A DNA stretch of 64,000 nt from assembly GCF_045037415.1 (NCBI RefSeq), contig NZ_CP173438.1; one strand, given 5' to 3'. This document shows, in pieces, positions 1,536 to 12,330 of this stretch. Both the position numbers and the translations under genes were made by a program. Origin of the DNA: Escherichia coli (GTDB taxonomy: Bacteria > Pseudomonadota > Gammaproteobacteria > Enterobacterales > Enterobacteriaceae). The notes under the pieces were generated by a model. That model was not told where the DNA came from. It worked only from the letters and a program-made list of their open reading frames with translations, and searched no databases. Every line of letters begins with the position of its first letter. Within the stretch, counting starts at the first letter, position 1.

Positions 1536-3014
1536 TTACGCATTCGACCAGCTCTGGATCGAATCCGCATTCCCCAATTCCCCATGCATCACTTCATACG
1601 ATTTTTTCAGGATCACATCAGTATGTTTGGTTAGGTCTTTGAAAATGCCTTTATTCATCGCGTCGTAGCGTTTGGCATTGCTCTCAATCGGTATGAAGAT
1701 ATCTTTCACGCGAACCATTTTATCGACAGCCGTTGTGTAATCCGGGTATAGCCCCAGACCTACCGCCGTATTGATCGCAGCCCCCAGACTTGCACAACCG
1801 TTAATGGCGTTTCGGCGTGCCGGAAGGTTGAACACGTCGGCAAAAATCTGCATAAACAGATCGCTGTTCGAACCGCCGCCAGTAATGATCACATGCTTTG
1901 CAAAGTGATTCATTTCATGACACATATTGTCGTAATTATTCTTCAGCGTCAGCGCCACGCTTTCCAGTATCGAACGATATATCCATGCGTAATCCATGCT
2001 GGAATCAAAACCGATCATAATCCCGCGTTTGTACGGTTCCCACGGATTGGTCAGCCAGTCCAGCACCGTCATCAGACCATTACAGCCAGGCGGCACGCAA
2101 GACGCTTTTTTGTTGAGCAAATCTTCCGGTGAAAGATCCTGTGCTTTGGCATCCTGAATTAACGACTCGCCTAACATGTCGCGCAGCCAGCTCACCGTCC
2201 ACATGCCTTTGCGAATACCGTAACCTTCATACAGCAATGTTTGCGGAATAGAAGACATAATCGGCCAGTACGCCACCGGATCTTTCGGCAGTGCTTTGCC
2301 GTTCATCATCAACGCGATATAGGTGCCAAGAGAAATTACCGCCGTTTCATCATCCAGTAACCCGGCTCCCAGAGCTTCTACCGGTTTATCACTGGTGGTA
2401 CAAACAACCGGCAGCCCAGCCGGGAAATGTGTCGCCAGCGCAGCTTGTGGTGTGATATGCCCAAGAATGGTGCCCGGCATTTGCACGTCAAAAAGCATCT
2501 GGCGGGGGATATTAAACTTTTCCATTACCGTAGCATCTTCGCTCCATGCCCAGCTCTTATAATCCACCGGCCACTGACCAAAATAGTTGGCGATATTGTC
2601 TTTAAACTCGCCGGTTAAGCGATGTGTCAGATAACCCGAAAAAGAGGTGACATAGGCCACGTCAGGATTAGTGTGTTCGTAAGGGCGTGTAACGCGTGCA
2701 TCCTGCCAGCTAATCAACGGCGCGGCTGGCGTACCATCGGCTTTCAATAGCGCACGGCAGCAACGGATTGAGCCCAGGCCAATGCCGACAATATCTTCTT
2801 TATTCCCGGCAAACTGGCTCATCAAATCGTGACTGGCAAAACATAGTGATGCCCATAAATCATCGTCAGGATGTTCTGCGGTATCGGCATCTGGCGTGTG
2901 CATCGGCTGCAATAAGCCTTTGCCTTCGCAAACCACATTACCTTCCAGATCGTACATCACCACTTTTGTGCTCTGACTTCCGCCATCAATCCCTATGATG
3001 TATTTTTTCGACAT
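1536..3014 (-). CDS. ygcE: FGGY-family carbohydrate kinase
   Basis: 492-aa ORF; N-terminal GIDGGSQSTK sugar-kinase motif; length and sequence consistent with E. coli YgcE. Confidence 0.85.
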   Translation of the reverse strand: MSKKYIIGIDGGSQSTKVVMYDLEGNVVCEGKGLLQPMHTPDADTAEHPDDDLWASLCFASHDLMSQFAGNKEDIVGIGLGSIRCCRALLKADGTPAAPLISWQDARVTRPYEHTNPDVAYVTSFSGYLTHRLTGEFKDNIANYFGQWPVDYKSWAWSEDATVMEKFNIPRQMLFDVQMPGTILGHITPQAALATHFPAGLPVVCTTSDKPVEALGAGLLDDETAVISLGTYIALMMNGKALPKDPVAYWPIMSSIPQTLLYEGYGIRKGMWTVSWLRDMLGESLIQDAKAQDLSPEDLLNKKASCVPPGCNGLMTVLDWLTNPWEPYKRGIMIGFDSSMDYAWIYRSILESVALTLKNNYDNMCHEMNHFAKHVIITGGGSNSDLFMQIFADVFNLPARRNAINGCASLGAAINTAVGLGLYPDYTTAVDKMVRVKDIFIPIESNAKRYDAMNKGIFKDLTKHTDVILKKSYEVMHGELGNADSIQSWSNA

Positions 3015-3040: not shown

Positions 3041-4318
3041 TTACTTGCTGCTAGCCATTGCGGGGGCGCTATCAGCAGTACGAATTTTTTGGAACAGCAA
3101 AAAGGTAAAGATGATCACCATGCCAAGCGCCGCCATGCCCATTAGCCACATGTTGCGATAGGCTTCTGCAGCGGGCAGGGTGTCTTGCCAGTAGCCGATA
3201 ATCGGGTAAACGAAGACATCCGGCAGGAATCCAATCACCGAACAAATACCTACCGTGGTGCCCATAATGTAAGACGGTGTTCTCGCTTCGCCAGGGCAGG
3301 CCCAGTACAGCCCGCGTGAGGCGTAACAGGTGAATCCCAGTAATAAAATCAAGCCAATCCCCATCGCGACCGATTGCGGGTTAGAGTTCGTGACGAGCAG
3401 GGCTGTCAACGCCAGCAAACCGATGATGGAAAGGATTTGGACCACGCGGGTAGGGGATTTCACTTTACTGTAGGTGGTGATAATGCCGCCAAGTGGGCCG
3501 CACAGCGCGCGGAAGATTTTGTTGATCACAATCCCCATGTAGCTCGCCGCCACCAGCGACATGCCGTACATTTCGGTCAGATAGTTGGTGGAGTAACTCA
3601 GAATGGCGTAGATGGTGAAGACACCAAAAATCACCATGCTGCAATACCAGGTAGTGCTGATGCGCAAAACGGCCAGGATGTCGCTAAGCTGGAATGACTG
3701 TTTTTCTTCGTTATTGGCACTGCGTAGGTTGTTGTTATCGCTAACAAAAAACCAACACAAAATGCCCAGCAGAATGTAAACCACACTATAGATAATAATG
3801 ACCGTTTTCAGGCTGGCGCTGTCATCCGGTGCAAAGCGAGAAAAGACCCACATGGTAAACACCGCCAGCGACATTACACCGACGCCGCGCAGCCCTTCCA
3901 TCCAGCCCATAATTTTCCCTTGCTCGCTATGATCGCCCAGCAACGATGCGGCTTTAATCGACACCGACCACAGCATTAAAATCGTCGTTATCGCAAAGGC
4001 GACCTGAATACAGAGCATTACCCACAGCGGTGGATATGTTGCCATTAACAGACCCAGTAATCCGGTAATGATCATCGCGGAAGTAATCATTTTGCGATGT
4101 GAAAATTTATCGGCAATAACGCCGCTAGGGGCATAGAAAATAATGGCCGCAATACCAAAGGTACTCATTATTAAACCTATCTCGGTATTGCTGAATCCCA
4201 TAAATTTTGCCATGGGAATTTGATAAATATAACGTAAATAAGCCAGGTCGAAACTAACGCCGCCGCTAAAACTAATTATCGCGAGGGTTATCCAACGGCG
4301 ATATGAGTTGTGTTGCAT
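3041..4318 (-). CDS. yqcE: MFS transporter
   Basis: 425-aa ORF, about 12 hydrophobic segments; 26 bp upstream of ygcE, likely co-transcribed. Confidence 0.85.
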   Translation of the reverse strand: MQHNSYRRWITLAIISFSGGVSFDLAYLRYIYQIPMAKFMGFSNTEIGLIMSTFGIAAIIFYAPSGVIADKFSHRKMITSAMIITGLLGLLMATYPPLWVMLCIQVAFAITTILMLWSVSIKAASLLGDHSEQGKIMGWMEGLRGVGVMSLAVFTMWVFSRFAPDDSASLKTVIIIYSVVYILLGILCWFFVSDNNNLRSANNEEKQSFQLSDILAVLRISTTWYCSMVIFGVFTIYAILSYSTNYLTEMYGMSLVAASYMGIVINKIFRALCGPLGGIITTYSKVKSPTRVVQILSIIGLLALTALLVTNSNPQSVAMGIGLILLLGFTCYASRGLYWACPGEARTPSYIMGTTVGICSVIGFLPDVFVYPIIGYWQDTLPAAEAYRNMWLMGMAALGMVIIFTFLLFQKIRTADSAPAMASSK

Positions 4319-4496
4319 ATCGTATTCCCATTTGTAATAGACAAAAAAAAGAGAAAAGTAAGCCGCCCTTTCAGGTGGATTACTTTTCTCAGGTCTCTAG
4401 TAATTGCAATAAGAAATAACATGGAAAGCAGAGGTGTTGTGTGAGAGTAATCACGCTTCTGCTTTTTTAAATTATTTGACAATACGAACATCACAC

Positions 4497-4512
4497 TGTG
4501 ATTACGATCACA
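4497..4512. promoter_or_regulatory. CRP binding site, perfect consensus half-sites TGTGA-N6-TCACA
   Basis: TGTGATTACGATCACA read directly; lies in the divergent yqcE / ygcW promoter region, flanked by TTGACA (4476-4481) and TAAAAT (4535-4540). Confidence 0.5.
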
Positions 4513-4565
4513 TTAGCAGTTATGTCCTTATGCTAAAAATTATCTCCAGTTACCAGAGATAATGA

Positions 4566-4612
4566 GAAAGGTAACTTCCCTCTCGCGGGGGAAGTTACCT
4601 TTCTTTTTTTTT
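4566..4612 (+). terminator. intrinsic terminator / attenuator in the ygcW 5' leader
   Basis: 15-bp perfect stem GAAAGGTAACTTCCC / GGGAAGTTACCTTTC with 8-nt loop, followed by 9 consecutive T; ends 24 nt before the ygcW ATG; no plus-strand gene upstream. Confidence 0.6.
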
Positions 4613-4636
4613 GCCTTACGGAAATTGGAGCTAACT

Positions 4637-5422
4637 ATGTCAATCGAATCTCTCAATGCGTTCTCAATGGATTTTTTCTCCCTGAAAGGTAAAACAGCAA
4701 TTGTTACCGGCGGGAATAGCGGTTTAGGCCAGGCATTTGCCATGGCGTTGGCCAAAGCTGGCGCAAATGTCTTTATTCCTAGTTTCGTCAAAGATAACGG
4801 CGAAACAAAGGAAATGATTGAAAAACAGGGCGTTGAAGTTGATTTTATGCAGGTGGATATCACCGCAGAAGGCGCGCCGCAGAAGATTATCGCTGCCTGC
4901 TGTGAGCGCTTCGGTACCGTCGATATTCTGGTCAATAATGCCGGTATTTGTAAGCTGAATAAGGTGCTGGACTTTGGTCGTGCCGACTGGGACCCGATGA
5001 TTGACGTGAACCTGACCGCCGCATTCGAGTTAAGCTACGAAGCGGCAAAAATTATGATCCCGCAGAAAAGCGGTAAAATCATTAATATCTGTTCATTGTT
5101 CTCTTACTTAGGTGGTCAATGGTCACCTGCTTATTCTGCCACTAAACATGCTCTTGCCGGATTCACCAAAGCCTATTGCGATGAATTAGGCCAATATAAT
5201 ATTCAGGTGAATGGTATTGCTCCTGGTTATTATGCAACCGATATTACGCTGGCGACCCGTAGTAATCCAGAAACTAACCAGCGTGTTCTTGATCATATTC
5301 CGGCAAACCGTTGGGGTGATACTCAGGATTTAATGGGGGCAGCCGTATTCCTCGCAAGTCCGGCATCGAATTATGTCAACGGACATTTATTAGTGGTTGA
5401 TGGCGGTTATTTAGTGCGCTAA
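4637..5422 (+). CDS. ygcW: short-chain dehydrogenase/reductase (SDR), KduD-like
   Basis: 261 aa from the ATG at 4637; TGGNSGLG Rossmann motif; the upstream in-frame extension from 4562 overlaps the terminator hairpin and is rejected. Confidence 0.85.
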   Translation: MSIESLNAFSMDFFSLKGKTAIVTGGNSGLGQAFAMALAKAGANVFIPSFVKDNGETKEMIEKQGVEVDFMQVDITAEGAPQKIIAACCERFGTVDILVNNAGICKLNKVLDFGRADWDPMIDVNLTAAFELSYEAAKIMIPQKSGKIINICSLFSYLGGQWSPAYSATKHALAGFTKAYCDELGQYNIQVNGIAPGYYATDITLATRSNPETNQRVLDHIPANRWGDTQDLMGAAVFLASPASNYVNGHLLVVDGGYLVR

Positions 5423-6946: not shown

Positions 6947-7039
6947 TGTGTCAGGCAGCGTTCCGCGATGACGGTGCGTTGCCTTTTCGGCTTCTCAGGC
7001 GAGAAGCCGTTCTTATTACCGGACAATGAAGGGGTAAAG

Positions 7040-9994: not shown

Positions 9995-10115
9995 GCTGCC
10001 GGATGATCCTGCCGATGGTTCTGGGCTGGGGACTTGTAGGCCTGATAAGACGCGTCAAGCGTCGCATCAGGCGCTGAATGTCGGATGTGGCGTGCAGCCT
10101 ACAAATCACACCAAA
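9995..10115. repeat. REP/BIME palindromic elements between convergent ygcQ and ygcP
   Basis: GCCGGATG and TAGGCCTGATAAGACGCG...CGCATCAGGC motifs typical of E. coli REP units. Confidence 0.7.
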
Positions 10116-10138
10116 TTCAACTTGTTACGATTATCCCG

Positions 10139-10714
10139 TCAAAGCAATTTTTTCGCTAACGTCCAGACCCCAGTATTCGTGGTGGAAAGCGCCACAACAC
10201 CCGCGTTAATCGCATTACGCGCATCTTCTTCATCGCACACCAGCCCGCCAGCAATCAGCGGTTGGCGGATTTTCTCCGTCACCCAGCCCAGCACTTTAGG
10301 CATGCAGCCTGGCAGGATCTCAATACAATCCGGATTCGATTGCGCAACTTGCTTATCAATGTTGTGAAACGAAATCGAATCAACAATAAACAGTCGATGA
10401 ATACAGAAAAAACCTTCCGCTCTTGCTGCTTTCAGCATTGAGGCTTTGGTACTGATAATTCCGTCCGCCTCGGTTACCAGTTTCAAAAACTGAATCACCA
10501 CTTCTTTATTTGACGCGCCTTCCAGCAAATCAACATGAATAAAAGCATATTTCCCGGCGTTCTTAATCTTTTTAACGATATTACTAATGGTGCAGATATT
10601 GCCGTACAACACGGAAATAAACTGGCATTCAGAGTCGATTGCCAGTTGCAGGCTGGCATTATCTTTAACGGCAGCAATCACCGGATTCTGGCGGAGCAGG
10701 TGTAAGAGGGGCAT
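10139..10714 (-). CDS. ygcP: GlpP-family glycerol-3-phosphate-responsive RNA antiterminator-like protein
   Basis: 191-aa ORF; family assignment by similarity to GlpP-type antiterminators. Confidence 0.8.
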   Translation of the reverse strand: MPLLHLLRQNPVIAAVKDNASLQLAIDSECQFISVLYGNICTISNIVKKIKNAGKYAFIHVDLLEGASNKEVVIQFLKLVTEADGIISTKASMLKAARAEGFFCIHRLFIVDSISFHNIDKQVAQSNPDCIEILPGCMPKVLGWVTEKIRQPLIAGGLVCDEEDARNAINAGVVALSTTNTGVWTLAKKLL

Positions 10715-10991: not shown

Positions 10992-12253
10992 CGCAGACTC
11001 CTGATAACATCGCCCGTCAGATGCCACAGGCCGTGACGACGTAAATGACGCCAGAGCAACTGGCGCAGCGGTGGAACAGGTGTATTCCCCTGATCCCATA
11101 AATCACGGGAAATATCCTGCATTAACCCAGGCCACACCCGATACCAGCCAGGACGTTGCAAAAGCGCCGGAACATGCTGATAACGCTGTAGAACATCCCA
11201 CAGCAGGCTGCGCTCTACGTTGTGATGATAAAGCGGAAACAGATTTTGCGGCTCGCGGTGTTGGCAGGCGCTTATCAGCGTTTGTGCCGCCGCCTGCGCG
11301 CCAGTTAGCGCCATATCCATGCCGCGCACGGAAATTCCGGTATTGACGCAACTGCGCAACGCATCGCCCACCAGCAGCCAGCCGTTACCGGCGTATTGCA
11401 CCGGCATACTGCGCAGGCCACCTTCTGGCACCAGATGCGCACCATACTCCAGTAATTCCGTGTTTTTGATAAGCGGGCGCACTGCCGGATGCGTTTTAAA
11501 GCGAGTCAGCAGCTCGCTTGCCGGAACACTACTTTGCGTAAGGGAGGAGAGCGGGCAAACAATCCCTAACGAGAGCGTTTGTTGATTAGTATAAAGAAAT
11601 GCGCCGCCGGGTAAGTCATCACAGATCCCGCCGCTGAACAACAACGCTGCGCCTTCGTTATTCTCCAGATGAAAACGTTCTTCAATAGCGGATGGTTCCA
11701 GCGTCAGCACTTCTTTGATTCCCAATGCCATCGCTTCGCCAGCAGGACGAGTCACTAACCCGTGGCGTTCCGCCAGGACGCTGTTGGCACCTTCTGCCAG
11801 CACCACATAACGGGCGTGAAGAATATCGTCACCACAAATGACACCACACACCCTGCCGTTTTCTTCATACAGTGCATCTACCGTCGCACCGGGGATGCAT
11901 TCGACACCTTCTTTTTCGGCTTCGGCAACCAGCCACGGATCGAATCGTGCACGTAATACACTCCAGGATTCACCGCCGGGCTGTAAGCTGGAAAACGTCG
12001 TTGCGCCATCTGGCGTTAACAGAGAAAGACTTTCGTGAGTGATGCGTCGTTCAAGGGGCGCGGTCAGGTGAAATTGCGGGAGGAGTTCCGCGAGCGCATG
12101 GGTATATAAACGCCCGCCGGAAAGATTTTTGCTGCCGGGAATCTCCGCTCGTTCCAGTAACAAAACGGATAAACCCGCTCGCGCGCAGCGTAACGCGCAA
12201 GCGGTGCCAGCAATTCCGGCACCGATAATAATAATGTCGCAGTCGTCTTCCAT
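10982..12253 (-). CDS. ygcN: FAD-dependent oxidoreductase, ETF-quinone oxidoreductase-like (FixC-like)
   Basis: 423 aa from MEDDCDIIIIGAGIAGTACA (FAD-binding GxGxxG). Confidence 0.85.
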   Translation of the reverse strand: MEDDCDIIIIGAGIAGTACALRCARAGLSVLLLERAEIPGSKNLSGGRLYTHALAELLPQFHLTAPLERRITHESLSLLTPDGATTFSSLQPGGESWSVLRARFDPWLVAEAEKEGVECIPGATVDALYEENGRVCGVICGDDILHARYVVLAEGANSVLAERHGLVTRPAGEAMALGIKEVLTLEPSAIEERFHLENNEGAALLFSGGICDDLPGGAFLYTNQQTLSLGIVCPLSSLTQSSVPASELLTRFKTHPAVRPLIKNTELLEYGAHLVPEGGLRSMPVQYAGNGWLLVGDALRSCVNTGISVRGMDMALTGAQAAAQTLISACQHREPQNLFPLYHHNVERSLLWDVLQRYQHVPALLQRPGWYRVWPGLMQDISRDLWDQGNTPVPPLRQLLWRHLRRHGLWHLTGDVIRSLRCL

Positions 12254-12330
12254 GTCATGCCCCAGATATCCAGAACACAACACCCTAACATAGCGTTACT
12301 TAAGGGAAATTGACCGCCGACACACTCTTA

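Follow-up and report, generated by a model that had tools for sequence, protein, structure and literature searches.

Mirror-image leader terminators between ygcW and yqcE of Escherichia coli are likely targets of the GlpP-like antiterminator YgcP

The ygc cluster of Escherichia coli comprises ten genes of orphan function. We analysed it in a 64,000-nucleotide stretch of contig NZ_CP173438.1 (the window, from whose first letter all positions are counted), with attention to the intergenic region at about 4300-4660 between the divergent genes ygcW and yqcE. A hairpin ahead of ygcW is a working leader terminator, and it has a mirror-image twin ahead of yqcE. Through a conserved RNA element that both contain, the two leaders are likely targets of YgcP, a predicted antiterminator of the GlpP type. 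The direct support consists of the sequence elements, of short transcripts and 3' ends published from in vivo work and of binding of the cyclic AMP (cAMP) receptor protein (CRP) at one of two sites, as well as the conservation and covariation of two alternative folds, the co-occurrence of the leaders with YgcP and an architecture in common with the GlpP targets of Bacillus. To the mechanism as a whole – two CRP promoters, termination by default and read-through brought about by YgcP with its effector – we assign a probability of roughly 0.7, and the action of YgcP at these two leaders seems to us probable to much the same degree. An earlier, sequence-only reading of the window had proposed one leader with one CRP site, in front of ygcW; that set is real, but a second leader and a second CRP site exist on the yqcE side.

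The intergenic region is an inverted duplication. When aligned in gene direction the two halves are collinear over about 150 nt, and each presents, in order, a CRP site, an extended -10 element, a sequence motif, a terminator and a Shine-Dalgarno sequence. The motif common to both leaders reads UUACYAGAGA-N2-3-UGAGAAARGUAAY. In an alignment of 15 Enterobacterales sequences, to which statements on intergenic conservation below refer, the CRP site, TGnTA element and leader of each half are conserved, and the spacer between the two modules is not. The sequence-only reading had looked to conservation of its hairpin and CRP site, and is borne out: the region is 100% identical in several strains and occurs at at least 95% identity in 5045 of 5426 complete E. 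coli genomes, and although K-12 MG1655 differs from the window at five of 325 aligned positions (4316-4640, no indels), none of the five lies within the leaders or CRP sites.

The first gene 3' of the plus-strand leader is ygcW (4637..5422, plus strand), which encodes an oxidoreductase of the short-chain dehydrogenase/reductase (SDR) family. The leader RNA itself (4544..4612, plus strand) extends from its 5' end through a U9 tract and corresponds to a published short RNA, ecr2774. Its intrinsic terminator (4564..4612, plus strand) has the parts given to it by the sequence-only reading, with arms GAAAGGTAACTTCCC (4566-4580) and GGGAAGTTACCTTTC (4589-4603) perfectly complementary over the 15 bp of 4566-4603, nine T residues (4604-4612) and 24 nt from the end of the T tract (4612) to the ygcW ATG (4637). 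If extended, the stem reaches 19 pairs (4564-4605), the last of which enter the T tract. The nearest gene upstream, yqcE (3041-4318), is on the minus strand, in agreement with the earlier statement that no plus-strand gene precedes the hairpin. The segment 4540-4640 folds with -42.3 kcal/mol (z = -7.0; 0 of 200 shuffles as good) and the leader 4544-4612 with -31.2 kcal/mol (z = -6.5), and a terminator scan of 3900-5000 returned nine terminator-like sites against 1.1 expected. R1, a covariance model built from 49 distinct leaders after an initial search by regular expression, matches 4546-4612 with 80.8 bits; across related leaders the terminator helix is 90% paired, with seven compensatory pairs.

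Published transcript data show the terminator at work. Table S5 of Romero et al. (2014, PMC4681348) lists ecr2774 as a 'novel sRNA' of 73 nt at 2898315-2898388 in U00096.2, which converts to 4544-4617 on the plus strand when K-12 gene starts and the indel-free alignment are used. Term-seq by Adams et al. (2021, PMC7815308; supplementary file 3, lysogeny broth (LB) at an optical density of 0.4) gives a 3' end 38 nt upstream of the ygcW ATG with 40640 reads, a Rho dependence of 'No' and an intrinsic-terminator score of 15.8, the threshold being 3. With a short RNA starting at 4544 and a Rho-independent 3' end, the hairpin indeed lies in the 5' leader of ygcW, as had been proposed, and it terminates transcription in vivo.

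The twin lies on the minus strand. Its leader RNA (4343..4405, minus strand), from 5' end through U8 tract, corresponds to ecr2775 and has as first gene on its 3' side yqcE (3041..4318, minus strand), encoding a major facilitator superfamily (MFS) transporter. The intrinsic terminator (4343..4390, minus strand) has arms at 4390-4380 and 4361-4351, an upper stem of CC.ACC/GGG.CGG and its U8 tract at 4350-4343, and from the end of that tract (4343) to the yqcE ATG (4318) there are 24 nt, as in the ygcW leader. The fold is worth -22.3 kcal/mol (z = -4.0), and R1 matches 4343-4407 with 73.6 bits. In the same catalogue ecr2775 is a 'novel sRNA' of 63 nt, validated by northern blot (2898527-2898590; Fig. 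7 and Table S5 of Romero et al. 2014, PMC4681348), and converts to 4405 down to 4342 on the minus strand. Here too Term-seq has a 3' end, 36 nt upstream of the yqcE ATG with 1557 reads, a Rho dependence of 'No' and a score of 11.4, and neither leader 3' end is annotated with a regulatory element (PMC7815308). Each of the two short RNAs begins 2-6 nt before the conserved motif and stops at the U-tract. The short transcript ending near 4612 that the sequence-only reading called for is thus found in published data for both leaders.

We reinterpret ecr2774, ecr2775 and the two orphan Term-seq 3' ends as terminated leaders. They have been catalogued otherwise, as novel small RNAs (sRNAs), and might be free-standing, trans-acting molecules with promoters and terminators of their own that happen to lie upstream of ygcW and yqcE. 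The northern detection of one of them and the high Term-seq count of 40640 for the ygcW leader would suit that idea, but each RNA stops 24 nt short of a start codon on its own strand, no promoter being found between the two, and the copies in other phyla (see below) always stand directly 5' of ygc-type genes; we therefore give it hardly any weight. Terminated leaders may nevertheless have a secondary trans-acting role. As a separate observation, the RNA-seq ends, unlike the Term-seq ends, lie at or just past the U-tracts in both leaders.

Two features of the ygcW leader touch on translation. In the minimum-energy fold of 4540-4640 its 5' end (UCUCCA, 4543-4548) pairs with the Shine-Dalgarno region (UGGAG, 4626-4630), a pairing that could mask translation of read-through transcripts; the UCUCCA sequence is weakly conserved. 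Attenuation by a leader peptide was considered and rejected, the sole AUG of the ygcW leader (4562) being AAG, ACG or AGG in other genera and the yqcE leader sequence containing no AUG at all. The AUG at 4562 sits in the leader loop, in frame with ygcW and with no stop before it, and lengthens ygcW by 25 codons (4562-4636) in a mechanically produced list of open reading frames; since the codon is AAG, ACG or AGG elsewhere, we do not take it for a real start.

CRP site 1, TGTGATTACGATCACA (4497..4512, centre 4504.5), serves the ygcW promoter. Its core, TGTGA-TTACGA-TCACA, is perfect, as the sequence-only reading had it, and is the sole TGTGA-N6-TCACA in the 64-kb window, where 0.03 would be expected by chance. 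It is conserved across the aligned Enterobacterales sequences. The site was predicted phylogenetically in 2007 (PhyloScan; PMC1794230), has been found by CRP ChIP-seq in enterotoxigenic E. coli (PMC4287617) and was bound in vitro with a dissociation constant of 1.7 nM in Footprint-seq (PMC12871828). The earlier proposal that CRP controls the ygcW promoter is therefore supported by binding both in vivo and in vitro. CRP site 2, TGTGAGAGTAATCACG (4440..4455, centre 4447.5), is a predicted site serving the yqcE promoter. It keeps nine of ten core positions, aligns with site 1 when the intergenic halves are compared and has GTGAGA...TCAC invariant in the 15 sequences. The published ChIP and footprint lists name site 1 only. 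A transcriptome study classes the unit formed by yqcE and the next gene, ygcE (1536-3014; FGGY-family kinase), under 'Crp activation' (PMC8085971).

The two sites lie 57 bp apart, centre to centre, with the promoters back to back, and both centres are exactly 29.5 bp upstream of the first base of their own -10 hexamers. As judged from this geometry, the ygcW promoter would have an extended -10 at 4531..4539 (plus strand), made up of TG (4531-4532), c and TAAAAA (4534-4539); it is conserved as TGnTA across the aligned genera, and the RNA-seq 5' end at about 4544 is just downstream. The putative extended -10 of the yqcE promoter (4413..4421) reads TGtTATTTC on the minus strand, CATGnTA is invariant in the 15 sequences and the RNA 5' end at 4405 is 8 nt downstream. 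The RNA 5' ends place the CRP centres at about -39.5 to -42.5, close to the -41.5 of class II promoters, in which the site overlaps the -35 region. Because of the 29.5-bp spacing between CRP centres and -10 hexamers, both promoters are assigned to class II, CRP-dependent with an extended -10, CRP site 2 entering this assignment as a predicted site. In CRP spacing, TGn extension and absence of a usable -35 they are like galP1 and similar promoters; they differ in standing back to back, each followed by a conditional terminator, and in that CRP activation is here measured indirectly.

Two hexamers named in the sequence-only reading need correction. TTGACA is present at 4476-4481 but is not a -35 box, for it lies 52 bp upstream of the -10 and in the sole unconserved stretch, the spacer between the modules; for the same reasons we regard it as a chance match. 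The supposed TAAAAT at 4535-4540 in fact reads AAAAAT, the local text being cTAAAAAt at 4533-4540.

The first part of each leader has an alternative fold. In the ygcW leader the proposed antiterminator hairpin (4548..4576, plus strand) pairs AGUUACC (4548-4554) with GGUAACU (4570-4576) around a 15-nt loop, AGAGAUAAUGAGAAA (4555-4569), in which two GAG triplets stand 8 nt apart; folding of the nascent RNA 4544-4582 gives this hairpin as the minimum-energy structure, with -6.7 kcal/mol and 83% of the ensemble. In the yqcE leader (4379..4404, minus strand) AUUACU (4404-4399) pairs with AGUAAU (4384-4379) around AGAGACCUGAGAAA (4398-4385), with the GAG triplets 7 nt apart, and is again the minimum-energy fold of the nascent RNA, weak at -1.4 kcal/mol. 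Compared with the stem of the ygcW leader, that of the yqcE leader has compensatory changes of G-C to A-U and of C-G to U-A. In both leaders the 3' strand of the antiterminator is the middle of the terminator 5' arm, so that the two folds are mutually exclusive. As the terminators are far stronger than the antiterminators, termination is the default and read-through would need a stabilising factor. The alternative fold that the sequence-only reading thought worth looking for beside the terminator is therefore present, and it covaries.

The antiterminator helix is paired at 93.6% in the 49 leaders and at 94.1% in 77 distinct leaders, against 16-57% in slid controls, where the 3' partner strand was shifted by 1-3 columns. 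In the 77-leader alignment (A5) four of the seven pairs show compensatory changes: G-C to A-U in 17 leaders, U-A to C-G in 11, A-U to G-C in four, which are actinobacterial, and A-U to G-C in three at another pair. The C of GUAAC is especially informative. In 32 of 49 leaders the terminator has a mismatch at this C, yet in 47 of 49 the antiterminator pairs it; the constraint on it therefore comes from the antiterminator fold. Neither leader gave a match in Rfam 15 at E-values up to 1, and nor did the canonical glp leaders discussed below.

These data bear on the possibility that the structures are constitutive attenuators or insulators of divergent CRP promoters, with read-through either unregulated or set by NusA/NusG, RNA chaperones or temperature. 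The short RNAs are abundant under standard conditions, no read-through condition has been reported and the antiterminator hairpins are thermodynamically weak, all of which such attenuators would explain. They leave unexplained, however, why the 5' strand of the antiterminator, which lies outside the terminator, is conserved and covaries, and equally the invariant GAG of the loop and the restriction of the motif to loci with YgcP and the core genes described next. We consider constitutive attenuation unlikely. The weakness of the antiterminators also fits a need for a protein such as YgcP, yet is no evidence of one.

The proposed trans-acting antiterminator is encoded by ygcP (10139..10714, minus strand), 5.5 kb from the leaders. 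The description of YgcP as GlpP-like in the sequence-only reading is borne out: residues 12-184 match positions 1-173 of the 173 of the Pfam family G3P_antiterm (PF04309) with E = 1.6e-62, relatives in the PDB are 3kts and 1vkf, and the K-12 annotation is 'putative anti-terminator regulatory protein'. A literature search on ygcP, the ygc genes and PF04309 retrieved no functional study. Close homologues of YgcP occur in many Enterobacterales, and others with 55-63% identity in Vibrio and in Firmicutes (Clostridium, Sporomusa, Vallitalea, Thalassobacillus and others).

The distribution of the leaders was assessed in 80 loci obtained by scanning representative genomes for YgcP. R1 finds exactly two full-length copies in the window, and no further copy of the motif was found there, for instance upstream of ygcN. 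Elsewhere it finds one or two copies beside a ygcP homologue in Escherichia, Citrobacter, Klebsiella, Enterobacter, Pluralibacter, Cedecea, Serratia, Rahnella, Budvicia, Limnobaculum, Pantoea, Erwinia, Izhakiella, Vibrio, Photobacterium, Sporomusa, Thalassobacillus, Halobacillus, Gracilibacillus, Salibacterium, Salsuginibacillus, several Actinobacteria and two metagenome-assembled genomes of spirochaetes. The groups with copies, from four phyla, are Enterobacterales, Vibrionaceae, Bacilli, Negativicutes, Actinobacteria and Spirochaetes. R1 recovered copies overlooked by the regular expression, namely the second, divergent one in Serratia, Pantoea and Vibrio and all those of Actinobacteria; in two Listeria species the motif is seen by regular expression only, with no R1 match.

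The gene 3' of a copy is always a YgcW-like SDR, a YqcE-like or other transporter, a YgcE-like FGGY kinase or a YgcU-like flavin adenine dinucleotide (FAD) oxidase. R1 matches at E <= 0.001 coincide with loci that carry a core of YgcP, YgcW, YgcU and YgcE; the core loci lacking an R1 match are the two from Listeria, covered by the regular expression, and the 29 loci with a PF04309 gene but without the core have no R1 match at that threshold. In a motif-first scan of metagenome contigs five loci were obtained, four of which encode a ygcP homologue, the fifth contig ending too early. With these included, a PF04309 gene is present in every motif locus long enough to judge. In the actinobacterial leaders (L051, L053, L057, L062 and L064), which sit about 80-430 nt 3' of the glpP homologue, the helix is kept through double compensatory changes, as GGUUGCU/AGCAACC. 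Low-scoring matches of R1 need inspection by eye, as is clear from a 30-bit match in Lysinibacillus (L089, 10075-10132) that we discarded as an ordinary glpK gene-end terminator with a GAGAAA/UUUCUC base.

Several observations on the gene content of these loci may be added. The core YgcP/YgcW/YgcU/YgcE (loci L002-L064) is found in Proteobacteria, Firmicutes, Actinobacteria and Spirochaetes, its proteins being 47-80% identical to those of E. coli outside Enterobacterales. The electron transfer flavoprotein (ETF) genes ygcQ, ygcR, ygcN and ygcO are nearly confined to Enterobacterales, the sole match outside being a weak one to ygcR/ygcQ in Sporomusa. Such a distribution suggests that a compact catabolic module has spread horizontally along with its riboregulator. 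In Serratia microhaemolytica (L027) a ygcP homologue of 70% identity is accompanied, within 18 kb, by neither a leader motif nor a ygcW, ygcU or ygcE homologue; this regulator may be an orphan or may have its targets elsewhere.

Binding of a metabolite directly by the 5' hairpin would make the leaders protein-independent riboswitches, YgcP being merely a co-inherited enzyme or a regulator of something else. Conserved, covarying and mutually exclusive folds, a motif that follows a specific set of catabolic genes across phyla and the lack of an Rfam family, leaving room for an uncatalogued class, are all features one would expect of a riboswitch. The candidate aptamer, however, consists of no more than a stem of 6-7 bp and a loop of 14-15 nt, with no sign of a structured ligand pocket; its conserved part is a single-stranded, purine-rich loop of the kind typical of protein recognition; the PF04309 gene accompanies every locus that can be judged; and the same layout is seen in Bacillus glp leaders, where induction is reported to require GlpP (PMC9604022, PMC10573289). 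A riboswitch is therefore very unlikely in our estimation.

The leaders of Bacillus provide the closest parallel for antitermination by YgcP. The B. subtilis glpD leader is a conditional terminator under GlpP control (PMC9604022, PMC10573289), and the sequence of that 5' untranslated region is printed in the supplement of PMC9604022. We compared five canonical leaders, from B. subtilis (glpD only), Priestia megaterium (glpD, glpF) and Lysinibacillus (glpD, glpF), those of the latter two being taken from canonical glpP-glpF-glpK-glpD loci; the glpP locus of Listeria monocytogenes (L088) has no adjacent glp genes and yielded no usable leader. Four of the five – B. subtilis glpD, P. megaterium glpD and glpF, and Lysinibacillus glpD – have the layout of the ygc leaders, with stems of 4-5 bp (GGUC/GACC, UGGUU/GACCA or GGUU/GACC) whose 3' strand falls within the terminator 5' arm, and purine-rich loops of 12-14 nt with GAGs 8 nt apart: CUGAGAUGAGGAGA, GGAGAAUCGGAGA, GGAGAAUAGGAGA and UGAGUAACUGAGA. 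In the fifth, Lysinibacillus glpF, stem and purine-rich loop (UUAGGAAAAGGAAC) are present but the loop contains no GAG triplet. The design recurs, with different stem sequences again, in more distant PF04309 loci of Clostridia and Lachnospiraceae.

What is shared with the GlpP system of B. subtilis, in which antitermination at the glpD, glpFK and glpTQ leaders responds to glycerol-3-phosphate, is a regulator of the same family, full-length PF04309, encoded in both cases outside the regulated transcripts, and a promoter-proximal hairpin with a purine-rich GAG loop overlapping an intrinsic terminator before the first gene. There are also differences. The stem is UUACY/RGUAA in ygc leaders and GGUC/GACC in Bacillus, and the conserved 5' AAGUUAAUA of Bacillus glp leaders is absent from them. 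R1 scores the canonical leaders at 9-15 bits (E about 0.3-4), a sequence similarity that is not significant, so that the ygc leaders form a distinct subtype. Their promoters are class II CRP-dependent and two divergent leaders share one intergenic region, and the RNA-binding role of YgcP is a predicted one. The genes regulated in Bacillus are glpF, glpK and glpD, whereas those here encode an SDR, an FAD oxidase, an FGGY kinase, ETF proteins and MFS transporters; since these are not glp genes, the effector of YgcP is probably other than glycerol-3-phosphate.

Other antitermination systems are more remote. BglG is the classical example of an antiterminator in E. coli. Along with SacY and LicT, acting at ribonucleic antiterminator (RAT) sequences of E. 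coli bgl and B. subtilis sac and lic, it follows the same logic, a short protein-stabilised hairpin overlapping the terminator of a catabolic leader, but the protein fold is unrelated to that of YgcP and the RNA motif differs. A Pfam scan of YgcP gives PF04309 only, with no CAT or PRD domain. Because no gene of the phosphotransferase system (PTS) is annotated in the ygc cluster, control of YgcP by PTS phosphorylation is not expected. TRAP binds repeated GAG triplets in leader RNA. A further lead, though no more than that, is the likeness of the ygc leaders to the targets of TRAP and HutP, purine-rich leaders with spaced GAG triplets near or over the terminator; those proteins belong to other families with other stoichiometries, and the ygc leaders have just two triplets, in a hairpin loop. 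HutP is described as binding repeated NAG triplets in leader RNA (PMC2425495).

Taken together, YgcP-dependent antitermination at the ygcW and yqcE leaders is a well supported inference, and it would work as follows. The two class II cAMP-CRP promoters would fire when preferred carbon sources are absent. By default each transcript would stop at the strong intrinsic terminator 24 nt before the start codon, which accounts for the short RNAs observed in LB and glucose media. Within roughly its first 30 nt each leader can form the antiterminator hairpin, with its stem of 6-7 bp and the loop pattern AGAGA-N-UGAGAAA, which YgcP loaded with its effector would bind and stabilise; by analogy with glycerol-3-phosphate and GlpK, the effector is plausibly a phosphorylated product of the YgcE kinase. 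The stabilised hairpin would block the terminator, and polymerase would then continue into ygcW-ygcU-ygcS-ygcR-ygcQ in one direction and into yqcE-ygcE in the other. Both cAMP-CRP and a specific inducer would be needed for expression. Inferred in this scheme are the binding by YgcP, the nature of its ligand, the regulation of read-through and how far the two operons extend.

A number of points weigh against this interpretation. Oddly, the two Term-seq ends correspond to 4599 and 4354, positions 4-5 nt within the 3' arms and short of the U-tracts. Taken alone, the antiterminator hairpins fold no more stably than shuffled sequences (z = -0.7 and +0.1). About five lineage events account for the compensatory changes, and the aligned sequences are related, so shuffle counts are not probabilities and overstate independence. 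Co-occurrence with YgcP is partly built in, related loci having mostly been gathered by means of YgcP, and the motif-first scan, which is unbiased in this respect, amounts to five loci only. The loops of the actinobacterial leaders (AAAACCUAGAGAAC) lack the first GAG, and only the second AGAGAA occurs in every lineage. The gene ygcP is not 3' of either leader. Finally, literature searches brought up no experiment tying YgcP to the leader RNAs and no expression data from a ygcP mutant.

A broader proposal is that the ygc leaders are founding members of an uncatalogued, multi-phylum class of cis-regulatory RNA, in which a core GAG-N5-GAG(A) loop is the general recognition element for PF04309 proteins and the YgcP subtype, sensing a phosphorylated metabolite, has been transferred horizontally with kinase, SDR and FAD-oxidase genes. 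We would give this an even chance.

Much of the material was already known, namely CRP site 1, both short RNAs, both 3' ends, GlpP-type antitermination in Bacillus and the fact that YgcP is annotated as a putative antiterminator. What appears to be undescribed is a mechanism that joins these facts, together with the yqcE-side leader and its CRP site, the covarying antiterminator fold, the multi-phylum spread with the gene core and the architecture in common with canonical GlpP targets; no literature on any of these points was found. This agrees with the sequence-only reading, whose author knew of no such mechanism for the ygc cluster; we likewise found no paper describing it.

In practical terms, the function and the inducer of the orphan ygc cluster become directly testable. 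YgcP, hitherto known just as a 'putative anti-terminator', gains probable RNA targets, and the little expression detectable from one of the strongest uncharacterised CRP sites of E. coli would be explained by transcripts that stop 24 nt before the genes. Were the broader proposal true, the leader would offer a reporter with which to look for the substrate of the orphan ygc pathway, and E. coli would possess, besides BglG and unrelated to it in mechanism, a second RNA-binding antiterminator that responds to a ligand. The conserved element, absent from Rfam, also concerns a regulator family that has been studied almost solely in B. subtilis.

Some minor observations concern other hairpins. An origin of the leader hairpins from repetitive extragenic palindromic (REP) or mobile elements was dropped, the sole REP-like match lying elsewhere, at 10039-10122. 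That match, on the minus strand between the convergent ygcQ and ygcP, is a weak one to the Rfam family naRNA4 (39.3 bits; gathering score 59.5) and has a REP-type look. In the Lysinibacillus locus L089, PyrR binding-site RNAs (RF00515) at 12010-12122 and 12136-12329, upstream of and into the start of an MFS transporter gene, are unrelated to the leaders. Lastly, the spacer between ygcU and ygcS (6988-7009, plus strand) contains a 9-bp GC-rich hairpin, CGGCTTCTC-AGGC-GAGAAGCCG, followed by TTCTTATT; in the putative operon this hairpin might act as an internal attenuator or mark a site of processing.

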